Virus record (IMG/VR): IMGVR_UViG_3300032134_000001 | Length of the DNA stretch: 64,000 bases | From: an uncultured virus (IMG/VR IMGVR_UViG_3300032134_000001) | Taxonomy: Duplodnaviria; Heunggongvirae; Uroviricota; Caudoviricetes | Reading direction: 5' to 3' (one strand) | In this document: positions 14,761-60,990 of the stretch, in pieces | How the letters are laid out: each line of letters opens with the position of its first letter | How positions within the stretch are numbered: position 1 is the first letter of the stretch | Translations under genes and position numbers: made by a program | Notes under the pieces: generated by a model | The model's input: the letters and a program-made list of their open reading frames with translations, nothing else | What the model was told of the DNA's origin: nothing | Database searches by the model: none

Positions 14761-15117
14761 GTGGCAGACAGGTACAGGATGGCTCAAGCGAAGGGAAAAC
14801 GGCATTTTCAGGCCGTAGTTGAGGAGGACACGCGGCTTCTTGCCTCGTTCGGGTTGGGATTGCTCTCGGTGAACAACGGGCTGCGCGTGGTAGTCAAGAA
14901 GTCGCTGCGGGGAGATCGGGTCAACCCCTGGGATGTCATCGAGGTGAACGCGCGCTTCTGGCGGTGGCTTCGCCCGCTCCTGGTGGAGCTGTCCGAACTC
15001 CGAGCTGCCCGGGTCAACGGCGTGAACGGCCACGGGAAGAACGGGCACGACGTGCCGGGCGTGAACGTCGGCGTGAACGGGCACGGCGGGGATTCGATCT
15101 CGGTTCCTCCGCGCTGA
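14761..15117 (+). CDS. hypothetical protein with VNG/NGH low-complexity tail
   Basis: AGGAG SD; VNGVNGHGKNGH...VNGHGG. Confidence 0.5.
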   Translation: MADRYRMAQAKGKRHFQAVVEEDTRLLASFGLGLLSVNNGLRVVVKKSLRGDRVNPWDVIEVNARFWRWLRPLLVELSELRAARVNGVNGHGKNGHDVPGVNVGVNGHGGDSISVPPR

Positions 15118-16288
15118 AGAAGCCCCTTCTGCTCATGAACATCTGAATCTTGTTCACGGCAGAGGCCATCACAGTCGCGTTGAAGCCATAGGGGCCCAGA
15201 GCCCGCTGGATGTCGTAGGGGTCGTACCCTTCCACTCCAATCTGGGTGGTCGGCGCCTCGCGCTTGAGCAGTGCCTCGCTGTGGTCGACCAGGGCCTCCA
15301 GGTCACGCGCCTGGTACTTCTGCGTCGCTGCCCGAGCTTCCTGCTCTGCTGCCTTCACCTCCAGCGCTCGGCGCCGCACGAGGTCGTGGGTCCTGGAAGC
15401 CTGCTGCCGGAGCCGACCGGCAGCCCTCATGCGGGTCGTCCAGATCGCAGCGCTGTGGTCTACCAACGTGCCAATGTTGGCCGCCCAGAGGAGAGCAAGA
15501 GCCTGCTGAACCTCAGGGCTGGCCTCGTCGAAGATGAAGTCCCAGGTGAGCCCCAAGCGCTGGTCCTGGTCGATCTTCTCCAGCGCCCAGTTCTGGCCTG
15601 CATCCCGCTGACTGCTTGCGCCTGCCCCGACGCCGGTGATGGCGTAGTCTGGGTCAGCAGCCCGGTCGTAGATCTCCCCGCTCTCCGGGTCCGTGGCCTG
15701 CAGTCCCTGCTGCTCGCGCGACCGCCGGTACGGGTAGAAGCCCGACTCTGACCGCCTGCCCTTCGCCTCGTCTTCCTCCTCGTGAGACCAGATCGGGTCC
15801 GGTGGCGGCCCGAAGCGCTTGCCCTCCAGCCCGCCCTCCGAGGCCTTCCCAAGCAGCTTGGCGACGCTGGCCTTCCACGCAGGAACTGTTCGCTCCCGCT
15901 CGTTGCCGAAGTCGCTGTTGAGCTGGAACATGACGTTCTGGACCCACTCGTCCTGCTCTACGGGGTCGCCCGACTTCTTGCGCATCCGACTTCGCAGCCA
16001 CGACTTGTAGCGGGCGAGGAAGGCGGCCAGGACGACTGGGCCTCCTCCGCGGGGACCGGGCGTGAAGCCCCGGTCGTCGGGGTCGTCGTGCTCGTCCTCC
16101 TCTTCGGGCTCGTAGGTGCTCTTCGCTGCTGTCGGGAGCCACGGGTCGTCGTCGTCGCCGGGGTTCCTGCGGGCCTGGCTCCGGTCGATGAAGGCGCAGA
16201 GGCCGAAGACCTCCGCGGGCCCGATGCAGCGGTTGTCCAGGCCCCAGGCCAACCTGGCCCTCGCCTGCCTCAGGGGCCGTCCAGCCAT
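15014..16288 (-). CDS. RxNP-tagged protein (MAGRP leader, RRNP, C-terminal RSNP + Arg tail)
   Basis: GGAGGTGA SD; tags at both ends; upstream late-promoter element. Confidence 0.65.
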   Translation of the reverse strand: MAGRPLRQARARLAWGLDNRCIGPAEVFGLCAFIDRSQARRNPGDDDDPWLPTAAKSTYEPEEEDEHDDPDDRGFTPGPRGGGPVVLAAFLARYKSWLRSRMRKKSGDPVEQDEWVQNVMFQLNSDFGNERERTVPAWKASVAKLLGKASEGGLEGKRFGPPPDPIWSHEEEDEAKGRRSESGFYPYRRSREQQGLQATDPESGEIYDRAADPDYAITGVGAGASSQRDAGQNWALEKIDQDQRLGLTWDFIFDEASPEVQQALALLWAANIGTLVDHSAAIWTTRMRAAGRLRQQASRTHDLVRRRALEVKAAEQEARAATQKYQARDLEALVDHSEALLKREAPTTQIGVEGYDPYDIQRALGPYGFNATVMASAVNKIQMFMSRRGFFSAEEPRSNPRRARSRRRSRPARRARSSRGRSRR

Positions 16289-16395: not shown

Positions 16396-17178
16396 ATGGC
16401 CAGACGCACCCGGACCAACCCCTTCTGGGTCACCCCTCAGGGCACCGCGGTCTACCAGACACCCGACCGCACGACCAAGAAGGGCAAGAAGGTCCAGGGC
16501 CAGTGGAGTCGCTACCAGGCGAAGCACCCGACCCGTCGTCTGCCTCGTCAGGCCTCGCGCGAGGCCGACCTGGAGACCGTCACACTCGACACCGCGCCTG
16601 GCTGGGAGCTGGCTCAGTTCGAGCAGGACGGCCAGCTCGTCACGATCCTGCTGTTCGAGGGACGCGACACCGGGCACTACACCTTGGACCCCCGCAAAGC
16701 GGCCAAGATGACCTTCCAGCTCGACAAGAAGCGGAAGCAGGCGAAGAAGGGCGCCCGCCGTGCCCGCCGCAACCCCGCGAAGACCGAGGCCCAGCAGGCG
16801 TGGCTCGACTACCAGGCAGCCGGCAAGGCCAGGGGCTGGTCCCGCAAGAAGACCTGCTCTCTCTGGGCTCGGAAGCGGAAGGCGTCCCAGAAGCGCGAGC
16901 GGACGGGCAAGGACGTCTACGACGTGGCCTTCGTGGAGATCTACCACCTGGCCGAGAAGGTCTTCGGCCACAGCGAGTTCATCCACTCCAGCGGCATGTT
17001 CGACTGGAGCCGTGAGCGGAAGATGATCAAGGCCGAGCTGTACAGCCCCAAGTGGTCACGCTGGTTCGAGCCCGCACCCCTCAAGACCTTCGTCGCGGGC
17101 CTGCGCAAGATCCAGAAGAAGCACCGGCCGCACGGGCTGAAGATGACCGTCGCGGTGAAGAACCCCCGCGCAAGATGA
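16396..17178 (+). CDS. basic RxNP-tagged protein (RTNP, RRNP, VKNP)
   Basis: MARRTRTNP...RRARRNP...VKNPRAR-stop. Confidence 0.7.
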   Translation: MARRTRTNPFWVTPQGTAVYQTPDRTTKKGKKVQGQWSRYQAKHPTRRLPRQASREADLETVTLDTAPGWELAQFEQDGQLVTILLFEGRDTGHYTLDPRKAAKMTFQLDKKRKQAKKGARRARRNPAKTEAQQAWLDYQAAGKARGWSRKKTCSLWARKRKASQKRERTGKDVYDVAFVEIYHLAEKVFGHSEFIHSSGMFDWSRERKMIKAELYSPKWSRWFEPAPLKTFVAGLRKIQKKHRPHGLKMTVAVKNPRAR

Positions 17179-17887: not shown

Positions 17888-18199
17888 CTACGCGGGGAGA
17901 ATGATCTTGGCACCCAGCCAGCCGCCCGCAAGGGCTGCCAGGCCGACAGCCAGGGGGGTTGCTGAGTAGCCCTTGTGCCGCGCCGCGGCAGAAGCCACGA
18001 CCGTACCACCGACTGCGCCGAGGCTGGTCGCCATCCAGGCCCAGTTCAGCATCGTGCCGCTCGGGTAGGGGTACAGGGCACTCTCGTTGGGCTCGACGAC
18101 CTCGGGGTTGTCGTAGGCCAAGTCGTACTCGGTCTCCAGCTCGCGGGCGTAGTCAGAGCCCTCGGGTCGAATCCAGATGGGGTTGCGTCGTGCGCTCAT
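17888..18199 (-). CDS. RxNP-tagged membrane protein
   Basis: MSARRNP start, two C-terminal hydrophobic segments; ATGA overlap. Confidence 0.6.
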   Translation of the reverse strand: MSARRNPIWIRPEGSDYARELETEYDLAYDNPEVVEPNESALYPYPSGTMLNWAWMATSLGAVGGTVVASAAARHKGYSATPLAVGLAALAGGWLGAKIILPA

Positions 18200-19475: not shown

Positions 19476-19793
19476 ATGGCTGGAAGACCCCTCAGACGTG
19501 CCCGGAGAGCCCGAAGGGCTCGCGAGAACCCACTCGTGGGGTGGGAGAACAAGGCAGGGCTGACTCCGGCCCAGGCGAAGGCCTGGGTTGAAGGCACGCT
19601 CACCCGATTCGACTTGCGCTTCGGCCAGACTTCATGGAGTCCGGGGGAAGAAGCCAAGGCGAGGAACGTCCTGAGCCTCTTGGGCACCCTGCGGGACCGG
19701 GCAGAGTCCACGACAGATCCCGAGGAGAGCCGGCGCATCTTCTCGCTTCGTCAGGCAGGCTGGGCCGAGCTTGCGAAGCTGAACGCCAAGTAG
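19476..19793 (+). CDS. RxNP-tagged protein (MAGRPLRRARRARRARENP leader)
   Basis: Leader shared with the 19851 and 16288 genes. Confidence 0.65.
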   Translation: MAGRPLRRARRARRARENPLVGWENKAGLTPAQAKAWVEGTLTRFDLRFGQTSWSPGEEAKARNVLSLLGTLRDRAESTTDPEESRRIFSLRQAGWAELAKLNAK

Positions 19794-19850: not shown

Positions 19851-21068
19851 ATGGCTGGAAGACCCCGACGACGCGCCCGCAGGAACGGCAGAGCCCGGCG
19901 CAACAGCAACCTCCGCGACTTCCGCACCTTCATGCGGCGGAAGTACCAGGGCGGAACCGCCGCACCGCGGGCCGGTGAGCCCTCGGCGTGGGGGGCTCAC
20001 ATCCCCCTCGGTGGCGACTACAAGCTGTCCGTCATGGCTGGCTACGCCCAGTACTCCGATCCGCGGGCCGACCAGCCTCATGCCTACTACGACCGCTGGG
20101 AAGTCGCTCTCTTCCACAACGGCGACTGGGTGAGCCCAAAGTGGTGGCCCGACCCCAAGGTCAAGGCCTTCGCGAGCCTGTTCGAGGGTGTGACTGACGG
20201 ACCCAGAGGGCACGATGTCGCTCCCTACATGCCAACAGCCGATGTGCAGCGGCTGGTCAACGCGCTGGAGGGTGCTGTCTGGAACGAAGCAAACTCGGCG
20301 CCGGGTCCCGAGTCCGAAGAGGAGCGGGGCTACGACTGGCAGCAGGAGCAGGAGTCTCGTGAGCGTCAGGAGGCGCGAGATCGACAGGAGACGCGGGAGC
20401 AACGGTTTCGGCAGCAGGAGTCCGGCAACTACGACCGGGGTCTGATGGAGAAGTTCCTCTCGGTCTGCGACCGTGTGCGGCGTGGCGCAACAGTCGGAGA
20501 GCGGAACGCTGCCCGTGGCGTCCTCATGAAGATGGTCGACAAGTACCCAGGGCTCAACGAAGCAGCCAACGAGGCCGCCCGCCGGGGCTTTCCAGACCAC
20601 CGTGGTCGCCGCACGCCGAGGAAGGGGTGCGTGATCCGAGCCAGCACGCCGGCTCCTGAAGCACAGGGCGGCCCTGGTCCTTACGCAGGTCCTGCCCGCG
20701 TAGAGCGAGACGGCAAGGTCGCTGTGCTCTTCTCCCCTGGCTTTGGCTCCGGCTGGACCACATGGGCCGTTGGGGACGATGGGATGAGGGAGATCATGCT
20801 CTTCCACCCCCTGTTTGTAGAGCTGGTCCAGCGCGGCGGTCTGAGCGAGGGGGCTGCCCAAGCGGTCTTCTCTCAGCTGGGCATCGACGAGCGCGACATG
20901 CCCTACCTGGGCGGCTTTGACGACCTGGCTGTGTCCTGGGTGGAGAAGGGCGCCCTCTTCAAGATCCGCGAGTACGACGGCAGCGAGAGCATCGAGGTCT
21001 TCCGCCCGGACAGCTGGACCAAGGCCAACCCGCGCGGGACGCGCAGACCACGCCGGCGGCGCCGATGA
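19851..21068 (+). CDS. mosaic multi-domain protein with Arg-rich leader and C-terminal KANP-Arg tail
   Basis: MAGRPRRRARRN...; DUF2786-like ERNAARGVLMKMVDKY; RDGKVAVLFSPGFGSGW domain; ANPRGTRRPRRRRR. Confidence 0.7.
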   Translation: MAGRPRRRARRNGRARRNSNLRDFRTFMRRKYQGGTAAPRAGEPSAWGAHIPLGGDYKLSVMAGYAQYSDPRADQPHAYYDRWEVALFHNGDWVSPKWWPDPKVKAFASLFEGVTDGPRGHDVAPYMPTADVQRLVNALEGAVWNEANSAPGPESEEERGYDWQQEQESRERQEARDRQETREQRFRQQESGNYDRGLMEKFLSVCDRVRRGATVGERNAARGVLMKMVDKYPGLNEAANEAARRGFPDHRGRRTPRKGCVIRASTPAPEAQGGPGPYAGPARVERDGKVAVLFSPGFGSGWTTWAVGDDGMREIMLFHPLFVELVQRGGLSEGAAQAVFSQLGIDERDMPYLGGFDDLAVSWVEKGALFKIREYDGSESIEVFRPDSWTKANPRGTRRPRRRRR

Positions 21069-21507: not shown

Positions 21508-21544
21508 CTTCTTCCTGCGGCTGCGTGACCGGGAGCCCCGCTCG

Positions 21545-23556: not shown

Positions 23557-24198
23557 ATGCCCATCTACCTCAAGCGCGTCCAGCTCAACCCCCGCGCCCG
23601 CCGAAACATGGCCTACCGCTACGGCCCGTTCTCGGTCGACACGGTGGAAGAGCTGCAGGCTCTCCTGGAGGCCCACCCGCAGTACGACACGGGAGCTGCG
23701 GCGCCAGCGAAGAAGGCGAAGAAGGCGAAGCGGAAGGTGAAAGAGGGGAAGAAGGTCCGCAGGCCCCGCAAGGAGAGCGGAGTCACCAGCAGCAGCGACC
23801 CCTTCGCGTCTGCGATGGCTCGCATCGAGAAGCTGGAGAAGGGCGGCGGTGGGGGCAGTAGCAAGGCCAAGTACCTCTTCCCCGAGCTGCTGGAGTACAA
23901 GTACAACGGGCTGTACCGGGTTCTCGCCCGCTACGTCGGTGGCCAGAAGGCGTTCTGCCCGGCTTTGCGGGCACTGGCGAAGTCCAAGCGGAAGCGGCTG
24001 ACCAACGTGGAGGCCTTCCGGGCCATGGGCGTGGAGCCGGACCGGGCTTCGGGTCTTCTCGACCGCTTCTCTGCGCAGCACGAAGACCTTGACACCCTGT
24101 CTGACGGGCAGGCCGCTGCAAACCTGGCCTTCCTGATGAGCCAGCCCGGTGTGGCGTGCCCGACGACCAAGACCAATCCGAGGCGCCGCCGCCGGTAG
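23557..24198 (+). CDS. basic RxNP-tagged protein (QLNP at N-terminus, KTNPRRRRR at C-terminus)
   Basis: Tags at both termini; GAGGA SD. Confidence 0.7.
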   Translation: MPIYLKRVQLNPRARRNMAYRYGPFSVDTVEELQALLEAHPQYDTGAAAPAKKAKKAKRKVKEGKKVRRPRKESGVTSSSDPFASAMARIEKLEKGGGGGSSKAKYLFPELLEYKYNGLYRVLARYVGGQKAFCPALRALAKSKRKRLTNVEAFRAMGVEPDRASGLLDRFSAQHEDLDTLSDGQAAANLAFLMSQPGVACPTTKTNPRRRRR

Positions 24199-26213: not shown

Positions 26214-26474
26214 ATGGCCAGCCTCATCCGGGTCAACCCCGAGCACCGCAAGACCCGCGACCAGACGATGCGCGTCGTCACGGCGTCTGTAGCGGGACCT
26301 GCTCTGATCTACGCCGGGTACAAGTTCCCGGGGACGGCCAGCACGCGGGCCCTGCTCTCGCTGCTCGGCGTGGCACTGGTCTACACCAACTACGCCACTT
26401 TCCGTGAGGTCTTCGATGGCGAAGAAGACGAAGAGGAGGCGCCAGAAGACGACCTCCTCGGCCTCACGGGTTGA
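26214..26474 (+). CDS. small membrane protein with N-terminal RVNP
   Basis: Two hydrophobic segments, acidic tail. Confidence 0.55.
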   Translation: MASLIRVNPEHRKTRDQTMRVVTASVAGPALIYAGYKFPGTASTRALLSLLGVALVYTNYATFREVFDGEEDEEEAPEDDLLGLTG

Positions 26475-31004: not shown

Positions 31005-31328
31005 ATGGCTCGAACTCGCCGGAACCCGAGAGGCTACCCCTCACAAGGAGCGGGGCTCGTGGTACGCGTAGGACGGGTCAAGCCCCGGCGAGACGGTGAG
31101 GAGAGCGTCTCGGTCGGTGAGCACACCCACTTCTTCGACGGGTCCGACGTGATCTGCCGCAGCGGAGCCCACTTCCCTGGTGAGCGGAAGTTCTTCCCGG
31201 CCTATGCCCAGGGGAACGGGCCGGGCACGGTGGACACCAGCCGCGCAGCCACCGTCACCTGCTACCGCTGCGCGAAGCTCGGCTCGTTCAACGTGGCCCA
31301 GGGCCGCAACCCCTGGCAGGGCCCCTGA
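31005..31328 (+). CDS. RxNP-tagged small Zn-finger protein
   Basis: MARTRRNP...H...ICRS...TCYRC...GRNP; GAGGAG SD. Confidence 0.65.
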   Translation: MARTRRNPRGYPSQGAGLVVRVGRVKPRRDGEESVSVGEHTHFFDGSDVICRSGAHFPGERKFFPAYAQGNGPGTVDTSRAATVTCYRCAKLGSFNVAQGRNPWQGP

Positions 31329-45713: not shown

Positions 45714-47819
45714 CTACAGGCCGGCACCGCCGAAGACGGTGGCGCCGTAGGCGCCGAAGACGCCACTGACGCCGTCGGGACCGGTCTGGCCGAGAGGGGC
45801 CAGCTCGGGAGCCGACAGCACCTGCTCCTGGGCCTGGACCTGGAGCTGCGAGAACGTGTCGAGCGCGTTCGAGCGGAGCTTCTTGATGACGATGACGCGC
45901 TGCTTGGGCGGCATCGCGGCCAGCTTCTGGACGTTGGCCCAGCCGATCATCTTGATCAGCCAGCCCCAGCGGTGTCCCGGCTTGGAGGCCAGGTGGGAAG
46001 CACCGCCACGGGTTCCGCCCATCCGCTGAACGCGGCGGGTCGGAGCACCGAAGCGCCGGTGGAAGGCACCGCGACCGTTGACGAGGGCCTGGCCCTCACC
46101 GAGGTCGAAGTCGGCCCCGCTGTAGTACGCATCGCCCAGGCTGGCCTGACCGTAGTCGTCGCCTTCCTCTGCGATGGCACCGAGCTGGTAGGCCATGCCG
46201 TCACCGTAGGCATCACCGAAGGTTCCGGTGTTCTCCAGCGCGAGTCCGCTCAGGTCGTCCTCGTAGAAGGCGCCGTAGTTGTCGAGCGCGAGCCCGGCGA
46301 TGTCAGCGTCTTCCGCGCCCTCGTCGTCACCACCGGCAGAGGTGCCGCCGGCGAAGTCGAGGATGGGACCGGCCATGATGATGCCCGTGCCGAGAGCCGA
46401 GCCGTAGGTCGAGAGCATGGGCTGACCCAGCTTCCGTCCCGCGATCTGGCTGATGGCGATCAGTGCGATGCCAGCGATGGTGCCCGAGACGGTGTTGTCC
46501 AGCTCCATGCCGCCGATGACGGGGATGGCATCCGGGACACTGAGGTCCAGGAGCTTCTCACCGATGACCGGGATCTTGGGCAGGAGGTCTTCCACCTTGT
46601 CAGCCACAAAGGCGTGGCCGAGCGCACCAGCCAGGCCCACCAGGACCAGCTTGCCTGCGTCAGCGGCCACGCCTCCGACGAAAGGGACAGGGTTGTCCAA
46701 TGCGAGGGCGCCGTAGTTGTCCAATGCGAGGGCGCCGTAGTTGTCGAGCGCGAGGGCTCCGTAGTTGTCCTGGGCGATGCCGTGCTTCTTGCGGTAGTGC
46801 TTCTTCGGGTGCCGCGGGTTGGCGCGAGCGCCACCCTTGTACATCACCGACAGCTCCTTCATGGAGAGGCCGGAACCCTTGTGGCTCTTGACGAACTTGA
46901 GCCAGGGGTTGTTCTTGGCAGCCTTCTTGGCCGACCGACGACGCTCGGCGGGGGTCCGCACGATCGGCTTGCCGGGGTACTGGGGCTTGAAGCCGCCCGT
47001 GATGAGCGTGCCGGAGCCCTTGGGCTTGCCGGTCTTGTAGTTGTGGCTTCCACCTGCGGCGGCGCCCCAGATGTCGCGGGAGCCCATGCGCTTGGCGCCC
47101 GGGTTCTTGCGAGCACGGACCGAGGCTTCGGCATCGGCCGGGCCGCCCCAGTAGGCGAGGCCAGCCTTGCGACCGACGCGGCCGGCGTTGTAGCCACGCG
47201 ACGTGACGCGGTCGACGATGACCGGCTGGCGGGTCACGTGACCGCGCTTGGTCTTGTAGCGGCGAGCGGGCCCGAGGGTCCGCTTCTTGCCCCACTTCAT
47301 GCGGCCGGCGGCCGTGGTGTGGAAGCGGTCGGAGTAGCCGGGGCGTCCGGTGAGGTCCATCTGGACGAACACGTCGATGACGGCCTGCTTGGCGGCGCGG
47401 CGAATGTCCGGGTCACCCTTGGGGAGACCGGCGTAGAACTTCTTGCGCTGGGCCTTGCTCATGCCCTTCAGCTCTGCGGAGGGCTTGCGGGCGAACTTGC
47501 CGCGGTACTGACCCTTGGCACCCTCGCCCCACTTGCTGGCGGCGGAGGTCCACTCGGCCACGAGCTTCGCAGCGTTGTGGTCGATGTAGCCGTAGGGATC
47601 GTTCGATCCGTAGGCTTCTTTGGTCAGGATGCGGGCGATCTTGTTGACCCGACGGTGGTCGTTCGGGTTGCGACGTGCGGATGCCATTTGGGACTTCCTG
47701 GGATTGGAGATGAGGATCGCCCCGTGGAGAGGCATGAAGTTGGAACTTGACGCGGCCACGGGGGCCTCCCTCCTCAGGGTGTCTTCAGCAATCTCTCGCG
47801 TGGCGGCCCATTTGTCCAT
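45714..47819 (-). CDS. 701-aa core/membrane precursor: basic RxNP-punctuated half, DNYGALAL repeats, hydrophobic segments, acidic YG-rich region
   Basis: ISNP, RRNP, RKNP, KNNP, RANP, LDNP; immediately upstream of the capsid candidate. Confidence 0.75.
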   Translation of the reverse strand: MDKWAATREIAEDTLRREAPVAASSSNFMPLHGAILISNPRKSQMASARRNPNDHRRVNKIARILTKEAYGSNDPYGYIDHNAAKLVAEWTSAASKWGEGAKGQYRGKFARKPSAELKGMSKAQRKKFYAGLPKGDPDIRRAAKQAVIDVFVQMDLTGRPGYSDRFHTTAAGRMKWGKKRTLGPARRYKTKRGHVTRQPVIVDRVTSRGYNAGRVGRKAGLAYWGGPADAEASVRARKNPGAKRMGSRDIWGAAAGGSHNYKTGKPKGSGTLITGGFKPQYPGKPIVRTPAERRRSAKKAAKNNPWLKFVKSHKGSGLSMKELSVMYKGGARANPRHPKKHYRKKHGIAQDNYGALALDNYGALALDNYGALALDNPVPFVGGVAADAGKLVLVGLAGALGHAFVADKVEDLLPKIPVIGEKLLDLSVPDAIPVIGGMELDNTVSGTIAGIALIAISQIAGRKLGQPMLSTYGSALGTGIIMAGPILDFAGGTSAGGDDEGAEDADIAGLALDNYGAFYEDDLSGLALENTGTFGDAYGDGMAYQLGAIAEEGDDYGQASLGDAYYSGADFDLGEGQALVNGRGAFHRRFGAPTRRVQRMGGTRGGASHLASKPGHRWGWLIKMIGWANVQKLAAMPPKQRVIVIKKLRSNALDTFSQLQVQAQEQVLSAPELAPLGQTGPDGVSGVFGAYGATVFGGAGL
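46692..46770. repeat. 24-bp tandem repeat x3 (plus partial) encoding DNYGALAL
   Basis: GTTGTCCAATGCGAGGGCGCCGTA twice, a variant third unit; related copy near 46270-46295. Confidence 0.9.
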
Positions 47820-48510: not shown

Positions 48511-49068
48511 TCAGTCCTTCAGCAGGATGACGGCGGTTCCGAGGAGCAGGATGGTGCCCGAGACAGCCACCGGGATGAACCAGGGCTGCTTGTAGAAGGG
48601 CGTGTCTCCGAACGCGCTGCCCGTGTCGAGAGCCGACTGGCCCCCTCCGGTGATGGCCGCGATGGCCGCAGCGGGGGCGGGAGTGGAGGTGCTGCCACCC
48701 TTCTCGACGTTGTGATAGAACCATTTCGCTGCCGACTTCACAGCGGCGGCAGACTTGGGCGCACCCACAGAAGTGGCCCCGGCCTTGATGTCCCCGAAGT
48801 ACTTCGCCAGCTTCTTCGGGTTGGTGACCTTCGATGCTTCTGCTCGCATCGACGCGAGGTTGGCTCGGGTCTCGCCATCAAGGTGGCCGCGCTCAGCTTC
48901 GACAGCCCTGCCGACGTTGGCGAGGAAGCTGCTCATGCCCGCTGCCGTCGTCACCTGGGCCCCTGCGATGTCAGACAACCGAGAGTCAAGGCTCGGGTTG
49001 AGCTGTGCCGCCGTGGGGAGCCCGATCAAGGACTGCCTGTGGCTGTAGGGAGATGGTTGGAAGCGCAT
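48511..49068 (-). CDS. tail-anchored membrane protein, FQPS leader
   Basis: MRFQPSPYSH...PFYKQPWFIPVAVSGTILLLG. Confidence 0.7.
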   Translation of the reverse strand: MRFQPSPYSHRQSLIGLPTAAQLNPSLDSRLSDIAGAQVTTAAGMSSFLANVGRAVEAERGHLDGETRANLASMRAEASKVTNPKKLAKYFGDIKAGATSVGAPKSAAAVKSAAKWFYHNVEKGGSTSTPAPAAAIAAITGGGQSALDTGSAFGDTPFYKQPWFIPVAVSGTILLLGTAVILLKD

Positions 49069-53249: not shown

Positions 53250-53252
53250 CCG

Positions 53253-54331: not shown

Positions 54332-54333
54332 GA

Positions 54334-55092
54334 TCAGCGCCTGCGCAGGAGGAGATAGAGAACACCGACGCCACCAGCGATGACGATGGGGTTCTTGTAC
54401 CAGACCTCGCCTTCCTCGTTGGTGTAGCCGTCCAGCTCGTCGATGTGCTCGTCGAGCGTGGCGAGTGCCTTGTTGGCGTACTCGGGCACGTCCTCCAGGG
54501 AGAACTCGGAGGGGGCGAACTCGGGGTGAGGCTGGTCCTCGGAGGCGGCCTCAACGGCCTCCACCTCCGCGGGGGTGGCCGCAGGAGGAGGCTGGCCGCC
54601 CTCTTCCTCTTCGGTGAGGGCCTCCTGCTCCTGGCCGACCGGGTTGGCCACAGCCCGCTTCCAACCGCGAGGACCGGACTTCACCAGCGTGAGGTCCGGC
54701 TTCCGGGTCGGGAGCGGCGCTGCCACGCCCGTCTGAACCTGCTGGAGCTGTGCAGCAGCCAGCATCTCGTTGAGGGTCTTCGCTTCCTGGCGTAGTTGGA
54801 GCCCGATCTGCCGTCGGCGCTTCCCTGCCGTCTTCGAGAAGAGGGTGGTGAGGCCACGCACCTTCCTCCGCTGGCTGGCGATGTCAGCGCTGAGCTGGTC
54901 GGTCGGCTTGTAGTAGTGCAGGGACGCCTTGAGAGCCGCGATCTCGGTCAGCAGCACGCCGTTTCGCGCCTTGATGGCAGGACGACGGGGCGACGCCGGA
55001 GACAGCTTTCGCAGGATGCCGCGGTTGCGGGACACCTGGGCCTGGCGCTCCGCGATGTTGCGCTTGGTGACGATGAGAGTAGCAGAAGCCAC
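54334..55092 (-). CDS. basic/acidic bipartite tail-anchored protein
   Basis: Basic N-half, VANP, acidic C-half, WYKNPIVIAGGVGVLYLLLRRR. Confidence 0.7.
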   Translation of the reverse strand: MASATLIVTKRNIAERQAQVSRNRGILRKLSPASPRRPAIKARNGVLLTEIAALKASLHYYKPTDQLSADIASQRRKVRGLTTLFSKTAGKRRRQIGLQLRQEAKTLNEMLAAAQLQQVQTGVAAPLPTRKPDLTLVKSGPRGWKRAVANPVGQEQEALTEEEEGGQPPPAATPAEVEAVEAASEDQPHPEFAPSEFSLEDVPEYANKALATLDEHIDELDGYTNEEGEVWYKNPIVIAGGVGVLYLLLRRR

Positions 55093-55113
55093 GAGAGCCC
55101 TCCGTAGACTTCC

Positions 55114-55168
55114 TGTGTACCCCTTCGGCCCTCTGGCGGGAAGCCGGGGGCGCCAGACGCGGTGCTAC
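55114..55168 (-). promoter_or_regulatory. putative late promoter GTAGCAC(55168)...TACACA(55119)
   Basis: 49-nt offset; shares GTAGCACCGCGTCTG with the 62071 site. Confidence 0.65.
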
Positions 55169-55470: not shown

Positions 55471-55536
55471 AGCCGCAGCCGTAGCCGCAGAGCCAAATGT
55501 GGTGACAGGTGGTGCCAGTCATGCTACCCCTCCTCC

Positions 55537-56148: not shown

Positions 56149-56165
56149 CTGGCGGTTGTGGTGCT

Positions 56166-56534: not shown

Positions 56535-56580
56535 GGCCTCTCCTGGATGATTTAGCCTAACCAGGAGTATGCCGGTTGTC

Positions 56581-59500
56581 TTACTCGTCTTCGAGCGCCG
56601 ACAGGTCGCTGAGATCCAGTGTGGGGGCGCTGAGCCCTGTGGCAGCGGCGTCCCCGACAGCTGCCTCCTTGGTGCGCCTGTACTGAGGATAGCTCGACGG
56701 CGGGGCCACCTTCTTCTGCCGGGCCGCGTAGTTCTTGAAGTCCACCTGGGCCCTGTCCCTCGCAAGGACGTGGGCATCGGGGCGTCCGGCCTCGTCGGCC
56801 GCGACCAGGTGGGTGGTCACCTCGCCGCTGTACGCCTTCTTCAGCATCGCCTGCACGTCCAGGTGGTCTCCAGGGCGCCAGAGCTGACGGGTCTGCGCGG
56901 AGCCGATGAGCCCCAGATGCACCCCACCAGCCATGCGGATGGTGCGGATCTGCTTCTCGGCCAGCCACATCACCATGCCCTGGATGGCCTTGCCGAGGAA
57001 GAAGCTGAGAGGCTGGTTGGCCGGCACGAGCATGTCGCAGTCGACGTAGCCCCCGTTTCGGAAGGCCATGACCCTCGTGAGCCCGTCTTCCTTCACGGGG
57101 GGCCCGACCAAGATCCACGCCGTACCCGGCCGGGCGACCGGCAGCATCGGGCTGTAGCCCTTCAGGCGGGCGGCGTTCCGGTACATCTTGCAGAGGGCCC
57201 CCGAGGGGGTGACCATGCTCGCCCGCCGCTTGCTGCGGCGCCGCTCGTCAAGAATCCGCTTCCCTTCCACCAGGCTCAAGTCGGCGTGGCGGGCGAGGTA
57301 GGCCTGGTCCTCCTCGGTGAGCTTCAGCGCCCCGCTCAGGATGGCCTGGCGGAGAGTCTTGTCCCTCTCCGGGTCCACAGCCCCGGGGCGGAAGGAGCCG
57401 AAGAGGTCCTGCTCGCTCACAGCGAGCGCGTCAAGTCGGTCTTGCGTCCGCAGAGCCCGCTGGCTCGCTGCACGGGGGTAGACCTCTTCGACCGCCGAGA
57501 ACATCTCCTCGTTGGTCTTCGGGCGGGAGAAGGAGACGTCCCCCAGCTCTTCGTCCCGCGCCGCCCAGGCAGCTACACGATCTCGCTCATCCCGCGACCA
57601 AGGGTTGTCACGGCTCCGGCCCCGACTGCGGCGAGGTCGCCGGCCGCGGCGACGCCTGCGCGGGTTCTTGATGCCGTGGACCACCCCCTGCACGTCGGGG
57701 TGGAAGAAGTCGCCCATGGTCTCGGCGTCCTCTCCCGTCAGGCCGTAGCGGGCGGGGTGGATCAGGTCGTCCTCCGTGAAGAGGACCTCCAGCTCACCGT
57801 CCTCCGGGTCCATCAGAGCTTCCAGGGCCGCGAGGGCCTCCCGCTCCAGTTGGGGGTCTCCAGGCTGTCCAGCCCGGAAGGGGAAGGGCATCGCAGGGCT
57901 GAGCTTCTCGTCGTCTTCGAGCCCCTCGTTCATCCGCTGCACGATGAGCGGCCACGCAGGACGCATCGCGGCGTACAGGACCTCCTGGTCCGTAGGCGTA
58001 GTCGTGAGGCGGCCCAACCGGAGGTCCTTGACCACCTCGGCAGCGAGCCAGTAGAACCCGCTGCCCTTGAACCCACGCTTGGTCGCCACTCGTGTGGCTT
58101 CAGTCGGACGGCCCCGCTTCTCGCGCTTGCCCTCGATCTCAGCGCCCTCAACGACTGCCTGCACCGCGCCCTTCTGGGTCTCACTGCGCGGGCTGAACTT
58201 GAAGGCCCGCAGGTAGGCGTTGAGGTAGCCGTTGGGCACCGGGTCTTCGCCTGGCCGCATCATCCGCGTGTGCCACTTCCCGTCGCCGCCCTTCATCCGC
58301 ACAGGAAGGGAGAGGAAGAGGTAGGGGGCGGCCTGAGAGGTCCACGGAGGGCTCGCCGGGCGGGCCGGAGTGCCCCTGGCCTTCTCCGAGCGGGCGGGGA
58401 TAGCGGGCTGGGCCGCGTCGGGAGGCACCGGGACGAGGTGAGGGACGCCGACCGTCGAGACACCCACACGCAGAAGGTCGCGCGCAACGCGCGGGATCAG
58501 AGCCGGGGACCCGTAGAAGGGGGAGTAGGAGTCGTCCCAGACCACCTCGCGCTTGACGCGGACGAGGGGCTCTTCGCCCTTCCTTCCGGGGATCTGCTCC
58601 AGCGTCTCCAGCATGGCAGCGCTCTCGGAGCGAGGCAGCGCCAGGAACCACTGCTCTGACCCGAGCGGCAGGGCCTTGGCCCGGAGCAGCGCCCGGATCG
58701 CACCGGGGCTCATGATGGGGTTCTCGCCCGTGTCCTCCACCTTCTTGGCCTCGTCGATGGCGAGGGCCGTGTTGATGAGCATCACCTTGGCCCGGAGGGG
58801 CGCGACGTACTTCTTCGGCTTGTCGACCCAGGCTTCGATGTGGTCCTCGCGGATCTCCTGCAGGTCGTAGACCAGCTGGGGGATGACCGCGCCTCCGCGG
58901 CTTCGGCGGAAGATGACCAGCCGAGTCGGGATGACCATCCCGGCCCCGGGGGTGCCATCCAGCAAGTTCTGGGAGAAGTCCACCTCGGCCCAGGCGCAAG
59001 GCGTCAGGTGGTGAACCCGAAGCTGCTCACGCCCACCCGGCCGGTCGACGGTGAACGACTCGATGGTCCGACGCTGGGAGCCGAACTCCGCGCCCGCCAT
59101 CGTGATCTCGGCACCGTCTCCGATCTCCCGGTAGTGGTGGAGGTGCTGGTCGTGGTCTTCCATCCAGCCCGAGATGGCCGTTCGGTCGATGCCCTGCTTG
59201 AAGCCCCACTTCACGATGTTGTAGTAGACCCCGGGCCAGGCCTGGACCTGCGGGATTTCACCGAAGAAGGAGATCCACTCAGCGCGGGGGGTCGACTGGA
59301 AGAACCTCGGTGGGGTGACAAGAAGCTCCTGCGCTCGTGCCAGGGACGCCTGGTCCGGGAAGTCCATCTTCGCGGCCAGCGCCCGGAAGTGGGTCATCGG
59401 AGAGAGAGGACTCAGCGCCAGGAGCCGCTCGTAGTCCTTCGTGCCCGTGATCTCCGTCTTGGTCAGGCCCATCCCCTTCAGCACGATGGGCGGGAGGAGG

Positions 59501-60990
59501 AAGCAGGCCTCGCGAGCAACCCGCGCCGGGTTCCCCCACAGGAGGGCCTCGCCCAGGGCGATCATGTTGCGGACAGGCTCCACCGTGGGGTTGTTGCCCG
59601 AGATGCGGTAGCCCTCCGTCTGCCCGCGCGGACCGGTAATGACGATGGCGACGGGTACGCCGCCCGTCAGGGAGCGGGTGACCTTGGGCATCGCCCGATA
59701 GAAGGTGGGGTAGACCTTCTTCCCGCGCCAAGCACCCTGCGCACCCTCCCAAGCAACCAGCAGACCGGAGAGGGACGGAGCACCCCGGGCTCCCGGTCCC
59801 GCAGAGTCCCCGCACTGCTTCCTGATCGCAGTCGTGAAGTTGTCCCAGTGCTTGTTGCCCCGCTGAAGGACCGCACCCACGCTGGACTTGCTGCCCGGCA
59901 GAATCTTGATGGTGCCGCTGCTGTACTGCCGACAGTTGTACCCCTGGACGTTGGGGCAGTCCTGGAAGGCTGCGCCGAAGGCGGCCTGGATGGCCTCAGT
60001 CCAGCCGATGGGCGCCAGGACCTCCTCGTAGAAGCCGAAGCGAGGGGGGAGTTCCCCCATGCGGTCCTGGTCCTTCGCTGCATGGTCCTTGCGGAACTTC
60101 CGCCACTTCGGAGACTCGGGGTTGCGCTGGCCTTCATGCCGACGCACGAGGTTCTCGTCCCCCTCGTCGAGGTTGAGGAGGAGCAGCTTTCGGGCGTACT
60201 CCGGGGGGATGTGAAGCGGGATGCCATCGACCACGACCCCACCCACGAGGGCAGTGATCGCTTCGATCTGCGTTGCTGCCTTCTCGATGATGGCACTGAC
60301 CTCGGGCAGGTCGGACATCCACACCAGCACACTCATCACGTACCGCTTCGCGAAGCCTGGGTTGATGGGCAAGACGTAGAGGTCGAGGTTCGTCGCGTCT
60401 GCACAGGAAGGCAGGAGGGGCCCGGTGGCACGAACCTTGGCGCCCTCAGGCGGAGCCCGGAAGAACTCGTAGATGGTGTTCCCGGCTCGATGGTTTTCCA
60501 GCTCGACTCCGGGAGGCGGAGTCATCCCGTACACGCGCACGAAGAACCACTCCAGCGGTGTGTCCTTGCTCACCACGGCTGACCGGACCACCTCGCCCTT
60601 CTCGATGCCCAGCAGCTGCGCGTTTCGGGAGGGCTCAGAGAGGAACCGCAGCCCGCCTGCCTTCAAGGCGTCGTAGGCCTTCTTGTTCGTGGAGAACATC
60701 GGGGCGAGCCCCGCGGCCTTGGCCTGATCGAGTCGGGGCTGGCGCTTCTTCTGGGCTGCGACCTTCTCACGCAGCTTGTGCCGGTCGAAGAGGAGTGGGT
60801 CGCGCTCTGCGGTGAGGCGCTTCTTCTCCGGCTTGTTCTTGGCCTGGCGGGCAGCTTGGAGCTGCTCGTTCAGGTCCTTGATGCGCTCTTCCAGCGCGAG
60901 GAGGTCCTTCTCCAAACGGCTGAGGCCGGGGTTCCTGCGGGACCGGAGCCGGCGCGGAGCCTTGACCCTGATGGGACGGCGTCGACTCAC
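56581..60990 (-). CDS. 1469-aa protein of unknown function with RRNP leader and internal KNP-Arg-RDNP linker
   Basis: MSRRRPIR...RSRRNPG; IKNPRRRRRGRRPRRSRGRSRDNP; GTGA-coupled to the protease gene. Confidence 0.75.
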   Translation of the reverse strand: MSRRRPIRVKAPRRLRSRRNPGLSRLEKDLLALEERIKDLNEQLQAARQAKNKPEKKRLTAERDPLLFDRHKLREKVAAQKKRQPRLDQAKAAGLAPMFSTNKKAYDALKAGGLRFLSEPSRNAQLLGIEKGEVVRSAVVSKDTPLEWFFVRVYGMTPPPGVELENHRAGNTIYEFFRAPPEGAKVRATGPLLPSCADATNLDLYVLPINPGFAKRYVMSVLVWMSDLPEVSAIIEKAATQIEAITALVGGVVVDGIPLHIPPEYARKLLLLNLDEGDENLVRRHEGQRNPESPKWRKFRKDHAAKDQDRMGELPPRFGFYEEVLAPIGWTEAIQAAFGAAFQDCPNVQGYNCRQYSSGTIKILPGSKSSVGAVLQRGNKHWDNFTTAIRKQCGDSAGPGARGAPSLSGLLVAWEGAQGAWRGKKVYPTFYRAMPKVTRSLTGGVPVAIVITGPRGQTEGYRISGNNPTVEPVRNMIALGEALLWGNPARVAREACFLLPPIVLKGMGLTKTEITGTKDYERLLALSPLSPMTHFRALAAKMDFPDQASLARAQELLVTPPRFFQSTPRAEWISFFGEIPQVQAWPGVYYNIVKWGFKQGIDRTAISGWMEDHDQHLHHYREIGDGAEITMAGAEFGSQRRTIESFTVDRPGGREQLRVHHLTPCAWAEVDFSQNLLDGTPGAGMVIPTRLVIFRRSRGGAVIPQLVYDLQEIREDHIEAWVDKPKKYVAPLRAKVMLINTALAIDEAKKVEDTGENPIMSPGAIRALLRAKALPLGSEQWFLALPRSESAAMLETLEQIPGRKGEEPLVRVKREVVWDDSYSPFYGSPALIPRVARDLLRVGVSTVGVPHLVPVPPDAAQPAIPARSEKARGTPARPASPPWTSQAAPYLFLSLPVRMKGGDGKWHTRMMRPGEDPVPNGYLNAYLRAFKFSPRSETQKGAVQAVVEGAEIEGKREKRGRPTEATRVATKRGFKGSGFYWLAAEVVKDLRLGRLTTTPTDQEVLYAAMRPAWPLIVQRMNEGLEDDEKLSPAMPFPFRAGQPGDPQLEREALAALEALMDPEDGELEVLFTEDDLIHPARYGLTGEDAETMGDFFHPDVQGVVHGIKNPRRRRRGRRPRRSRGRSRDNPWSRDERDRVAAWAARDEELGDVSFSRPKTNEEMFSAVEEVYPRAASQRALRTQDRLDALAVSEQDLFGSFRPGAVDPERDKTLRQAILSGALKLTEEDQAYLARHADLSLVEGKRILDERRRSKRRASMVTPSGALCKMYRNAARLKGYSPMLPVARPGTAWILVGPPVKEDGLTRVMAFRNGGYVDCDMLVPANQPLSFFLGKAIQGMVMWLAEKQIRTIRMAGGVHLGLIGSAQTRQLWRPGDHLDVQAMLKKAYSGEVTTHLVAADEAGRPDAHVLARDRAQVDFKNYAARQKKVAPPSSYPQYRRTKEAAVGDAAATGLSAPTLDLSDLSALEDE

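Follow-up and report, generated by a model that had tools for sequence, protein, structure and literature searches.

Why do so many otherwise unrelated proteins of one virus carry the dipeptide Asn-Pro (NP) beside runs of arginine? The question arises from a window of 64,000 nucleotides, taken from a large uncultured bacterial virus (whole contig up to 167 kb) with a G+C content of 64 to 68% throughout the window and 66% in the genome. Its lineage is large and without annotation; lineage genes encode a jelly-roll capsid-like protein, numerous small membrane proteins, very basic core-like proteins, and a conserved transglutaminase-like Cys-His-Glu enzyme. An earlier note on this DNA had described an R-x-N-P tag at protein termini and between modules, where a cut would free the payload. 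The present study reveals that the tag is real, is a feature of the protein sequence, and has been conserved both among homologues and across the virus lineage. The NP signal probably marks the joints of DNA-binding arms with virion proteins, from which these arms may be trimmed.

Results

All tags quoted earlier were located in the sequence, both the N-terminal ones (MARRTRTNP at 16396 and RRARENP at 19476 on the plus strand, MSARRNP at 18199 on the minus strand, MARTRRNP at 31005 on the plus strand, and RRARWNP and RSRRNP in the minus-strand ORFs 38320-42876 and 56581-60990) and the C-terminal ones (VKNPRAR, KANPRGTRRPRRRRR, KTNPRRRRR, and RSNPRRARSRRR). ORFs were called by GC3 and codon score; with five shadow ORFs removed and three starts reset, the final gene set held 75 ORFs (19,656 aa). 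As a null model, 1000 within-protein shuffles of this set were used. NP occurred 76 times (shuffle mean 29.0, maximum 51), NP with at least two R/K within four residues on either side 35 times (mean 7.6, maximum 18), and NP in residues 1 to 12 seven times (mean 1.2), and no shuffle reached any of these counts. NP with at most 12 residues C-terminal to it was found six times (mean 1.6), a count reached in 3 of the 1000 shuffles. Of all dipeptides in this set, NP was the most over-represented. The previous estimate of 35 to 40 motifs in about 18 ORFs was about right for the basic-flanked subset, the expected enrichment over shuffled proteins is borne out, and the terminal counts agree with the placement at termini and module joints.

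Between 15 and 61 kb (53 ORFs), 60 NP were counted against 21.0 expected, with 32 basic-flanked against 5.9, and 29 of the 53 ORFs contain the dipeptide. Strongly flanked sites, i.e., those with at least three R/K in one 6-residue flank or at least four in both, numbered 26 in 13 of these ORFs. In an 80-ORF set, a shuffle that keeps Arg patches together (12-residue blocks) yielded 3.6 such sites (maximum 12) against the 26 real ones, and NP had the highest observed/expected ratio, 2.55, among dipeptides with at least 15 copies. The genes at 1 to 14.7 kb (polymerase, AAA, lysin) hold 12 NP against 6.6 expected and none that is strongly basic-flanked, consistent with the earlier remark that replication genes lack Arg-flanked copies. 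The genes for most proteins with A-[R/L/I/V]-x-N-P lie within the structural block or close to it, and GAGG-like sites lie 5 to 12 nt 5′ of the ATGs of ORFs with N-terminal tags. At the 26 strongly flanked sites, Asn is encoded by AAC (22) or AAT (4), Pro by CCC (12), CCG (12), CCA (1), or CCT (1), and Arg by mixed codons. Since the codons differ among copies, the signal lies in the protein and not in the DNA.

The R-x-N-P motif exists, but in a broader form, A-[R/aliphatic]-x-N-(P), in which Asn rather than Arg is fixed: Ala at −3, Arg or aliphatic at −2, any residue at −1, Asn, and usually Pro. Ala precedes NP at −3 in 24 of the 76 sites (2.7-fold), and Arg is raised 3.2-fold at −2, 2.3-fold at −4, and 2.5-fold at +2; this context is absent around the 421 Asn residues without a following Pro. 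A hydrophobic class (GAILISNP, MTVAVKNP, GALALDNP) has no upstream Arg. At six aligned sites in three protein families Asn is invariant, without a single Ser, Thr, or Asp in its place, while flanks and tails vary. That the Arg run lies outside the NP was true of 7 of 10 N-terminal and 4 of 4 C-terminal cases, but not of ORFs 23557, 26214, and 45714, where the N-terminal NP precedes the basic run. Furthermore, NP is adjacent (within four residues) to only 11 of 88 basic runs, and there is none in the most basic proteins (35338, 37315).

Several tagged ORFs lie between 15 and 31 kb. The 424-aa ORF at 15014..16288 (minus strand) has the N-terminus MAGRPLRQARAR followed by QARR-NP (aa 42, nt 16160-16165), and C-terminally PRS-NP-RRARSRRRSR... 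(aa 399, nt 15089-15094). The 260-aa ORF at 16396..17178 (plus) carries MARRTRT-NP (aa 8), ARRARR-NP (aa 126), and a C-terminal MTVAVK-NP-RAR (aa 256). In all three seams, N and P are unchanged throughout the four homologues (46 to 52% identity), and modules inserted in these homologues are bounded by additional KKNP/KGNP seams. After its invariant C-terminal NP only two to four residues follow, variable and not always basic; the proposal that a cut at NP frees the payload does not suit this terminus, and freeing a payload from an Arg tail is therefore not the whole story. A 103-aa small membrane protein (17888..18199, minus) starts MSARR-NP (aa 6), which counts by the looser criterion only, and a 105-aa ORF (19476..19793, plus) starts MAGRPLRRARRARRARE-NP (aa 18). 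The 405-aa ORF at 19851..21068 (plus) has an N-terminal MAGRPRRRARRNGRARRN and a C-terminal WTKA-NP-RGTRRPRRRRR (aa 393); K391, N393, and P394 do not vary in any of the four homologues, and the Arg tail of the family varies from 4 to more than 50 residues. The 213-aa ORF at 23557..24198 (plus) bears KRVQL-NP-RARR (aa 11) and TTKT-NP-RRRRR (aa 207) at its N- and C-terminus, respectively, and an 86-aa membrane protein (26214..26474, plus) has an N-terminal MASLIRV-NP-EHRKTR (aa 8).

Between 31 and 61 kb, a 107-aa ORF (31005..31328, plus) starts MARTRR-NP (aa 7) and ends GR-NP-WQGP (aa 102). The 779-aa modular ORF at 31328..33667 (plus) has six NP seams in its final 325 residues (aa 455, 537, 556, 606, 694, and 732), four of them strongly basic-flanked. 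A 391-aa very basic core-like protein (36112..37287, minus) contains YEGGALN-NP twice (aa 27, 112) and AIE-NP-RKWRSRRK (aa 189), repeating the order acidic peptide, NP, basic stretch. The 1518-aa ORF at 38320..42876 (minus) carries GRRARW-NP (aa 69) and KGA-NP-KKLKKK (aa 1274), and its family (three relatives) has an NP observed/expected ratio of 3.2. A 185-aa membrane protein (48511..49068, minus) contains SKVT-NP-KKLAK (aa 83). The 252-aa ORF at 54334..55092 (minus), which lies below the basic-flank count criterion, ends WYK-NP-IVIAGGVGVLYLLL-RRR, i.e., motif, membrane helix, and basic end. The 1469-aa ORF at 56581..60990 (minus) bears LRSRR-NP (aa 20), GQR-NP (aa 290), HGIK-NP-RRRRRGRRPRRSRGR (aa 1109), and SRD-NP (aa 1129).

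The 701-aa ORF at 45714..47819 (minus) adjoins the jelly-roll gene and carries GAILIS-NP-RK (aa 39), ASARR-NP (aa 51), RARK-NP (aa 239), AAKN-NP (aa 304), GARA-NP-RHPKK (aa 334), and tandem DNYGALAL units ending GALALD-NP (aa 376). In 29 sequences of its family P30, G33, A34, N39, P40, and R41 are invariant (PLxGAILISNPR), with N and P of site 39 kept in 28 of 28 homologues. Over 63 ORFs, the family holds 215 NP against 52.7 expected; this ratio of 4.08 contrasts with 0.59 in the NP-poor jelly-roll family next to it. Asn follows G-x-aliphatic-A-aliphatic-x in 94 of 142 cases against a background of 3.5%.

Across 23 related loci, 441 NP were found against 193.8 expected, and 115 basic-flanked ones against 15.7. 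Twelve of the 23, including loci at 38 to 40% G+C, lie above all 200 shuffles, and four have no basic-flanked NP. A relative of 72,988 bp with 127-bp terminal repeats has 62 NP against 34.0, 22 of them flanked, and in nine of its ORFs the C-terminus consists of a basic-flanked NP and an Arg-rich tail after it. One of its proteins, an M23 peptidase with a membrane helix and LAVVTPKA-NP-RRRRRR, is a known enzyme domain to which the tag has been added.

The structural block also encodes a 352-aa enzyme with a C-terminal membrane helix (60987..62045, minus), and the assignment of a transglutaminase/papain-like Cys-His-Glu core to it is confirmed. The Pfam Transglut_core match (E 2.3e-4, 21.9 bits) lies below the 23-bit cut-off; 34 aligned sequences all keep D128, C129, D130, H176, E195, and D206, 572 representative homologues were found, and the AF2 core has a pLDDT above 90. 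Five PDB matches of the model by Foldseek have E ≤ 1e-3: three chains of the putative Cys protease 3isr, TglA, and one axonemal microtubule entry. Transglutaminases, PNGase, LapG, and PeiW/PeiP match more weakly, below that line.

Discussion

We tentatively favor an Asn-centered processing seam that joins Arg-rich genome-binding arms to virion proteins. Some 13 otherwise unrelated proteins bear A-[R/L/I/V]-x-N-P, a short linear signal specific to the lineage, right at the border between a folded or membrane module and an Arg-rich arm, be it the N-terminus, the C-terminus, or a module joint. Anchoring would come from the arms, which would hold the proteins on the packaged genome or on acidic tails that belong to membrane proteins of the virion. 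Within the seam, Asn, which is invariant, would be the working residue, and processing at maturation, by a cut after Asn, would release small basic peptides and free or re-position the modules. Pro at P1′ is disfavored by most endopeptidases, which counts against such processing, as does the C-terminus of the 16396 family, where removal of two to four residues would free nothing. The small share of basic runs with an adjacent NP, its absence from the most basic proteins, and the four related loci that have no basic-flanked NP also weigh against this reading. We infer the membrane-anchored 60987 enzyme to be the best candidate seam reader, since no other peptidase-like family occurs in the structural block of either the window or the complete relative. 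Its resemblance to the prophage cell-wall isopeptidases PeiW/PeiP and to PNGase means that it may instead be an entry lysin, and, as the window takes in 64 kb of a contig of up to 167 kb, a second protease could sit outside it.

Known prohead proteases cut at L/I-x-E (T4 gp21) or A/S/G-x-E (phiKZ/SPN3US). T4-type capsid targeting likewise marks many head proteins that are otherwise unrelated with one short signal at their ends, and gp21 sites, like the NP motif, combine a fixed P1-like residue with a hydrophobic one two positions before it; taking Asn as P1 puts position −2 of the NP motif at P3, as in L/I-x-E. However, the fixed residue here is Asn followed by Pro, not Glu, and the tags are Arg-rich and also occur at C-termini and internal joints. 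Moreover, the searches turned up no terminase, portal, or HK97-type capsid, and no known prohead-protease family appeared among the 63 window ORFs scanned or among 63 of the 74 ORFs of the complete relative. Adenovirus combines a jelly-roll capsid, basic DNA-condensing precursors (pVII, pX/mu, pVI), and a packaged cysteine protease, adenain, of clan CE, which acts on DNA and cuts at (M/I/L)XGX-G. The jelly-roll capsid and very basic proteins are similar here, and a packaged cysteine protease would likewise release small Arg-rich peptides. In contrast, the catalytic residues of the candidate enzyme come in the transglutaminase/papain order (Cys-His-Glu), the seams read A-[R/aliphatic]-x-N-P, and cleavage in the window virus is a proposal.

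Chemical precedent for an Asn|Pro cut comes from reovirus mu1/aquareovirus VP5 and from FlhB/SpaS/EscU. VP5 is cut at Asn42-Pro43 as a capsid maturation step (PMC9148132), and SpaS/FlhB autocleave at NPTH (PMC4620466). A hydrophobic strand precedes NP in these proteins, as in our hydrophobic motif class. They have single sites in folded domains, whereas dozens occur here, many lying six to eight residues away from a protein end or within basic regions that are probably unfolded. NPTH is absent among the NP sites listed in the window ORFs, where no Bac_export_2 homology was found either.

Possible, though on the unlikely side, is a seam that is never cut, in which Asn-Pro is a helix cap (Asn as N-cap or C-cap) or hinge at which a folded or membrane module stops and an Arg-rich arm begins; this arm would stay in place and tether the protein to packaged DNA or acidic membrane-protein tails. 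The boundary of module and basic arm carries NP in both orientations, several tags adjoin membrane helices (54334; the M23 protein of the relative), the D/E/Y-rich tails of membrane-protein paralogues could pair with Arg arms, and the short C-terminal remainder after NP suits a cap better than a cleavage site. However, caps normally accept Ser/Thr/Asp, yet Asn is invariant at the six aligned sites; the −4 to −1 context is sequence-specific; the GALALDN tandem units, spaced 8 to 11 residues, are not helix boundaries; and N-terminal copies six to eight residues after Met have nothing to cap. Terminal Arg arms as such are known from the C-terminal SPRRR repeats of the hepatitis B core and the N-terminal arms of bromovirus coats. 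These are likewise structural proteins with terminal Arg runs, and SPRR/SPKK turns resemble the small polar residue-Pro-Arg-Arg unit found here. In those small RNA viruses or pararetroviruses it is the capsid protein itself that bears the arms, whereas here they are absent from the jelly-roll protein and present on more than ten others, and the seam Asn is not replaceable by Ser.

Docking without cleavage appears rather improbable: a strand-like aliphatic-A-aliphatic-x-N-P would recruit diverse proteins into the particle by adding to a conserved virion component, be it a jelly-roll capsid protein, a membrane protein, or some packaging factor, with the Arg run only assisting. The strongest motif conservation, in the protein encoded next to the jelly-roll genes, the multivalent tandem copies, and the invariant MTVAVKNP at an extreme C-terminus, which fits a terminal docking peptide, agree with it, but the Arg-type copies (ARRNP) are not strand-like. 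Far less probable is acyl transfer, by which the 60987-type enzyme would transpeptidate after the seam Asn, like sortases or asparaginyl ligases, or cross-link via its side chain, attaching tagged proteins covalently to another virion protein or a lipid amine. A conserved transglutaminase-fold Cys enzyme in the structural block and an invariant C-terminal Asn before short variable leaving groups would suit it. As in LPXTG/PEP-CTERM sorting signals, 54334-55092 ends in KNP, helix, and RRR, and the M23 protein of the relative in helix, KANP, and six Arg. However, the membrane helix is missing from most tags, no NCBIfam sorting-signal or sortase family was detected in any of the 29 proteins scanned, and no exosortase family was detected either. 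Finally, chance, a composition effect at 66% G+C, or a DNA-level repeat translated in frame is practically refuted: although Arg, Pro, and Ala have G+C-rich codons, the counts were attained in none of 1000 shuffles, copies use different codons, homologues keep the sites as amino acids, and the enrichment retained in relatives at 38 to 40% G+C rules out a high-GC artefact.

Asn-Pro is enriched beside basic arms and at protein ends

The earlier note had proposed that an Arg-flanked Asn-Pro (NP) tag recurs on otherwise unrelated proteins. Every peptide that it quoted is present in the sequence, and the N-terminal copies begin at an ATG with a GAGG-like site upstream. Enrichment and positional bias were assessed in 75 ORFs (19,656 aa; five shadow ORFs removed and three starts reset) against 1000 within-protein shuffles, and both were borne out. 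NP occurs 76 times versus a shuffle mean of 29.0 (maximum 51), and its observed-to-expected ratio of 2.55 is the highest among common dipeptides. Copies with at least two Arg/Lys within four residues number 35 (mean 7.6, maximum 18); seven copies lie inside the first 12 residues (mean 1.2), and six have 12 or fewer residues remaining (mean 1.6; 3 of the 1000 shuffles reach six). Under a stricter rule (at least three Arg/Lys in one six-residue flank, or at least four in both), 26 strongly flanked copies are found in 13 ORFs, a common short signal on many unrelated ORFs for putative head proteins. Shuffling inside 12-residue blocks, by which the Arg patches are kept, yields 3.6 such copies (maximum 12).

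Between 15 and 61 kb, NP was found 60 times versus 21.0 expected. The replication and lysis genes at 1 to 14.7 kb hold 12 copies versus 6.6 expected and no strongly flanked one, in agreement with the claim that the replication enzymes lack Arg-flanked NP. Likewise, the PG_binding + CHAP lysin recognised by Pfam (12164-12991) has no Arg/NP tag. Terminal Arg runs are present on putative structural proteins of the window, and the proteins bearing the motif (the "seam") are concentrated in and around the structural block.

The codons vary from copy to copy, which argues that the repeat is selected as protein. A DNA-level repeat or regulatory word was rejected, since the Asn, Pro and Arg codons all vary (AAT at 4 of the 26 copies). 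A high-GC artefact was also rejected, by the shuffles and by the persistence of the motif in relatives of 38 to 54% G+C; chance or composition is thus a negligible explanation.

Three ORFs, 15014-16288 (-), 19476-19793 (+) and 19851-21068 (+), begin with the near-identical peptide MAGRP(L)R(R/Q)AR; in two of them the first 17 nucleotides are identical, and the peptide is retained in three of the four homologues of the 19851 family. A tRNA-Arg gene (21433-21508, +; anticodon GCG, reading CGC/CGU) is situated among the tagged genes. As CGC, used 665 times, is the most frequent codon for Arg in the called genes, the virus may provide its own tRNA for the Arg-rich tails.

Asparagine is the fixed residue of the motif

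Around the 76 NP sites, Ala stands at -3 in 24 (2.7-fold) and Thr is 2.3-fold enriched at the same position; Arg is enriched 3.2-fold at -2, 2.3-fold at -4 and 2.5-fold at +2, and Arg/Lys are found at -1. The 421 Asn residues without a following Pro have no context whatever. Two classes of motif were observed, one basic, (R)-A-R-R-N-P, and one strand-like (GAILIS-NP, MTVAVK-NP, GALALD-NP, KRVQL-NP). From the alignments, the two are interchangeable in evolution, since MASARR-NP of the 701-aa protein (45714-47819, -) aligns with MALALD-NP of its relatives. Among 46 distinct members of the 701-aa family, Asn comes directly after 94 of 142 occurrences of the unit G-x-aliphatic-A-aliphatic-x, versus a 3.5% background, and the residue after that Asn is Pro (26), Met (18), Tyr (10) or Phe (8). 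These statistics make Asn the fixed element and Pro a preferred, dispensable follower. Furthermore, only 11 of the 88 basic runs in the window have NP within four residues, and the Arg run is an accompaniment to the Asn motif. The R-x-N-P tag of the earlier note was therefore a real recurrent signal, but its fixed residue is Asn, not Arg.

The 701-aa protein also carries, at aa 350-376 and 520-545 beside predicted membrane helices, tandem eight-residue units of the type DNYGALAL: three consecutive, then ...GLALDNYGAF... and ...GLALENTG..., with up to six MGALALDN in relatives. ORF 36112 (36112-37287, -; 391 aa) includes the sequence GGALNNPGPKD at aa 20-31, with NPGP, the core of the 2A skipping peptides of eukaryotic viruses. 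This 2A-like motif occurs in one copy only, the duplicate unit at aa 105-115 having NPSM.

The seam is conserved across related loci

In the family of the 260-aa protein 16396-17178 (+), comprising the window and four homologues at 46 to 52% identity, N8-P9, N126-P127 and N256-P257 are invariant, the residues flanking them averaging 17 to 72% identity. Only RAR, RY, RIF, GRW or WGGR remains after the C-terminal NP, and two homologues have an additional module bounded by extra KGNP/KKNP seams. In the family of the 405-aa protein 19851-21068 (+; four homologues), K391, N393 and P394 are the same throughout; the Arg tail after them has from 4 to more than 50 residues. In the 701-aa family (29 sequences, 24 to 56% identity), P30, G33, A34, N39, P40 and R41 are invariant. 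Overall, Asn is 100% conserved at six aligned sites (4, 4 and 28 homologues), with no substitution by Ser, Thr or Asp; at a seventh site, in the 701-aa family, Asn is 75% conserved, and Gly, Ser or Ala stands in place of Pro. The position of the remaining NP copies, which lie in the basic central part of the 701-aa protein, is not conserved. Each 701-aa homologue nevertheless has 1 to 11 NP versus 0.4 to 1.7 expected (family total 215 versus 52.7), and in the neighboring jelly-roll family NP is depleted (42 versus 71.7). All of the aligned homologues (4, 4 and 28 in the three families) carry the tag.

The motif was also counted in 23 related loci of at least 10 kb, two duplicates and loci with fewer than 1500 aa of called ORFs being excluded. 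NP totals 441 versus 193.8, and basic-flanked NP 115 versus 15.7; by locus, the latter count lies above all 200 shuffles in 12 of the 23 and is zero in four. The low-GC loci give 5 versus 0.95 (38% G+C) and 10 versus 1.6 (40% G+C). In a complete relative of 72,988 bases, which has terminal repeats of 127 bases (the 73-kb relative), NP occurs 62 times versus 34.0, 22 of them flanked, and nine ORFs terminate in basic-flanked NP plus an Arg-rich tail. An M23 peptidoglycan peptidase of this relative (L087:17981-18757, -, record G001) is made up of a catalytic domain, a membrane helix and LAVVTPKA-NP-RRRRRR; judging by its sequence, it is the clearest example of a known enzyme domain to which the tag has been added.

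The virus and its lineage

The window has a G+C content of 64 to 68% along its whole length and a high coding density. Pfam recognised phage-like genes among 63 window proteins, among them a family A DNA polymerase that carries fused UDG and exonuclease domains (4935-8807, +), a second gene of polymerase type (33669-34874, -), an SNF2 helicase, a tyrosine integrase and HNH endonucleases. The fusion is a 1290-aa protein with UDG-like, 3'-5' exonuclease and polymerase domains. The second gene product (401 aa) matches the DNA_pol_A profile at positions 138-264 only, below cut-off, and is 58% identical to a gene in a related locus (L020).

PHROGs gave no match for 44 of 47 window proteins, the other three matching HNH endonucleases, a polymerase and an uncharacterised family; NCBIfam gave no family among all 29 proteins scanned. 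In the 35-64 kb region neither database names a gene except the HNH endonuclease at 55162-56148. Neither megablast with 45000-62000 nor tblastn with the 1469-aa protein (56581-60990, -) gave a match in the phage database, and for the same protein none was found in the viral contig collection or the ESM Atlas.

On the minus strand, the block between 63.9 and 35.3 kb contains the genes for two giant proteins (the 1469-aa protein and one of 1518 aa, 38320-42876), for a series of small proteins that have a membrane helix at the C-terminus, for three proteins of extreme basicity (35338, 36112 and 37315) and for a highly conserved 236-aa protein (44891-45601). The last has 660 homologue clusters, the best 120 of them 62 to 100% identical. 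Its AF2 model is a beta-sandwich (pLDDT 71), and the nearest structures are nearly all viral jelly-roll capsid proteins, with weak scores (Foldseek PDB best E 2.8e-3; VIA Z at most 7.7; 51 BFVD matches at E ≤ 1e-3 with TM 0.2 to 0.4). The model shows a capsid-like fold of the jelly-roll type, to which no family is assignable from such weak matches. In 63 of the 74 ORFs of the 73-kb relative (eight probable shadow ORFs and three ORFs crossing segment boundaries being left out), the terminase, portal, HK97-type capsid and prohead-protease families are all absent from the profile matches. Lineage loci number two in the viral contig collection versus 137 in metagenome contigs, and the longest contig among the cluster records of the window proteins has 167,369 bases. 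We take the element to belong to a widespread, unannotated bacterial-virus lineage with jelly-roll-type capsid proteins, which is probably membrane-containing. A full-text literature search found neither this lineage nor an Arg/Asn-Pro tag described.

A candidate enzyme for the seam

The gene at 60987-62045 (-; 352 aa) overlaps the start of the 1469-aa gene. Its product scores 21.9 bits against Pfam Transglut_core, just below the cut-off of 23, and the copy in the 73-kb relative scores 33.7 to 35.1 bits, above it. The enzyme has 572 representative homologues, and D128, C129, D130, H176, E195 and D206 are invariant in 34 aligned sequences. These sequences, the AF2 model (pLDDT >90 in the core, residues 40-220) and Foldseek reveal a Cys-His-Asp/Glu triad on a papain-like core fold; in the model, the C-terminal helix looks like a membrane anchor. 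Foldseek returned five matches at E ≤ 1e-3, namely three chains of the putative cysteine protease 3isr (best E 8.5e-5), TglA and an entry for an axonemal microtubule. Next, at E 1.5e-3 to 2e-2, come transglutaminases (2 and 3), PNGase and LapG, and the prophage pseudomurein isopeptidases PeiW/PeiP also lie beyond E 1e-3. A PDB sequence search with the 352-aa enzyme gave a best E of 0.74. The earlier note had called this protein a protease. The fold is fairly so named (3isr; Cys-His-Glu), but the matches also allow an isopeptidase/lysin, an amidase or a transglutaminase.

No other family of peptidase type was found in the structural block of the window; the 73-kb relative has two, the same family and the tagged M23 lysin. 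A single complex prediction, run without controls, paired the enzyme core (residues 20-235) with the stretch of the 701-aa protein that holds its N-terminal motif (residues 22-72); the scores of 0.11 and 0.01 against a mark of 0.32 speak neither for nor against an interaction.

Possible roles of the seam

On the strength of the alignments and counts, our study has shown a lineage-wide, sequence-specific, Asn-centred seam at the junctions of modules and Arg-rich arms. The earlier suggestion of a capsid-targeting or processing tag is partly supported: the existence of the tag, where it sits and that it is conserved are established, with a consensus, A-[R/aliphatic]-x-N-(P), broader than R-x-N-P, and targeting and cleavage are possible roles. 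The Arg arms may bind the packaged genome, or else the D/E/Y-rich tails of membrane-protein paralogues, and the seam would be recognised by a dedicated factor. Five paralogous small proteins (48511-49068, 50939-51940, 52396-52866, 52863-53249 and 53253-54179, all -) each have a C-terminal membrane helix, and four of them an N-terminus of the type M-x-F-Q-P-S-P-Y/H-S. Three have D/E/Y-rich C-termini (DDYDYEYEDEYE, YEEDYEE and DDDDDYEE), possible counter-charges for Arg arms.

Processing after Asn is the reading that we favor, albeit tentatively. The strict requirement for Asn, the specific upstream residues, which resemble a P4-P1 pattern, the module-wise architecture and the unit of ORF 36112 (acidic peptide, NP, basic stretch) all argue for it, as do two published precedents, in which the Asn|Pro bond is cut during capsid maturation and in proteins of the FlhB type (PMC9148132, PMC4620466). 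The more specific analogy with FlhB/EscU NPTH drawn in the earlier note failed, as no listed NP site precedes TH and Pfam gave no Bac_export_2 match. Other points speak against processing. Ordinary endopeptidases poorly accept Pro at P1', which makes this residue awkward here; the invariant C-terminal seams leave just two to four residues; many basic runs have no seam; and the 60987 enzyme may be an entry lysin.

A hinge or cap that stays uncut is a possible, if doubtful, alternative to processing. A helix cap predicts interchange of Asn, Asp, Ser and Thr, instead of the invariant Asn observed at the six aligned sites. That the seam is a docking peptide is unlikely, and that it is an acyl-transfer signal, transglutaminase being one activity allowed by the fold, is very unlikely.

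A bolder reading, which as a whole we consider rather improbable, is that of a lineage-wide, Asn-specific maturation code. A membrane-anchored Cys enzyme of the transglutaminase fold would cut or transfer A-[R/aliphatic]-x-N|P seams inside the particle. Anchored in the virion membrane, it would act on seams of more than 10 unrelated proteins, releasing protamine-like Arg peptides onto the genome and freeing or fixing cargo such as entry lysins. The lineage would then be membrane-containing, with a jelly-roll capsid and genomes to ~167 kb, and nearly invisible to phage annotation.

Comparison with known systems

In function, the seam system most resembles the capsid-targeting and propeptide system of T4 and giant phages and the core maturation of adenovirus, but it differs from both in its scissile-type motif and in having tags at both ends and at joints. 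The T4 prohead-protease motif is L/I-x-E, to which the upstream residues of the Asn seam may be likened. No Pfam or PHROG family of prohead protease (T4 gp21/HK97/assemblin) was found among 63 and 47 window proteins, respectively, of the 64-kb window, and none was detected by profile in 63 of the 74 ORFs of the 73-kb relative; a remote homologue, or a protease gene in the roughly 100 kb of this genome that lie beyond the window, may still exist. For the adenovirus type, defined by a clan CE protease and a GX-G or GG-X site, neither the window nor the 73-kb relative gave an adenain/Ulp1-like (Peptidase_C5-like) match; the seam here is Asn-Pro, and the enzyme has the order Cys129, His176, Glu195. 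As for sortase/exosortase systems, Pfam gave no sortase in the window and NCBIfam no family in the 29 proteins scanned; a tripartite C-terminus (motif, helix, basic tail) is found in one window ORF, 54334-55092.

If the seams are processed, they would represent a new protease and motif pair for virus maturation, and a first indication of DNA condensation by cleaved Arg-rich peptides, in an adenovirus-like manner, among bacterial jelly-roll viruses. Were the maturation code true, bacterial viruses would have their own equivalent of the core maturation of adenovirus, with another protease fold and another scissile motif. Even uncut, the motif provides a sequence handle for spotting virion-associated proteins across a widespread lineage, whose capsid-like protein has 660 homologue clusters and of which just two loci were found in the viral contig collection. 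The tags are also portable and thus candidates for loading foreign cargo.

Other genes of the window

The HNH endonuclease genes lie at 55162-56148 (+), 1786-2385 (+) and 30453-30980 (-). The first interrupts the minus-strand structural operon on the opposite strand; homing endonucleases are commonly inserted in this manner. Five tandem ORFs of 118 to 128 aa at 24339-26210 (+), none of which matched a family, resemble an array of paralogues coding for small beta-rich proteins. A small ORF at 47747-48136 (+), on the strand opposite that of the structural operon and between the 701-aa gene and its next neighbor on the minus strand, is found in 43 loci; its product is 85% identical over 81 residues to its best relative, placing it among the best-conserved genes of the lineage.
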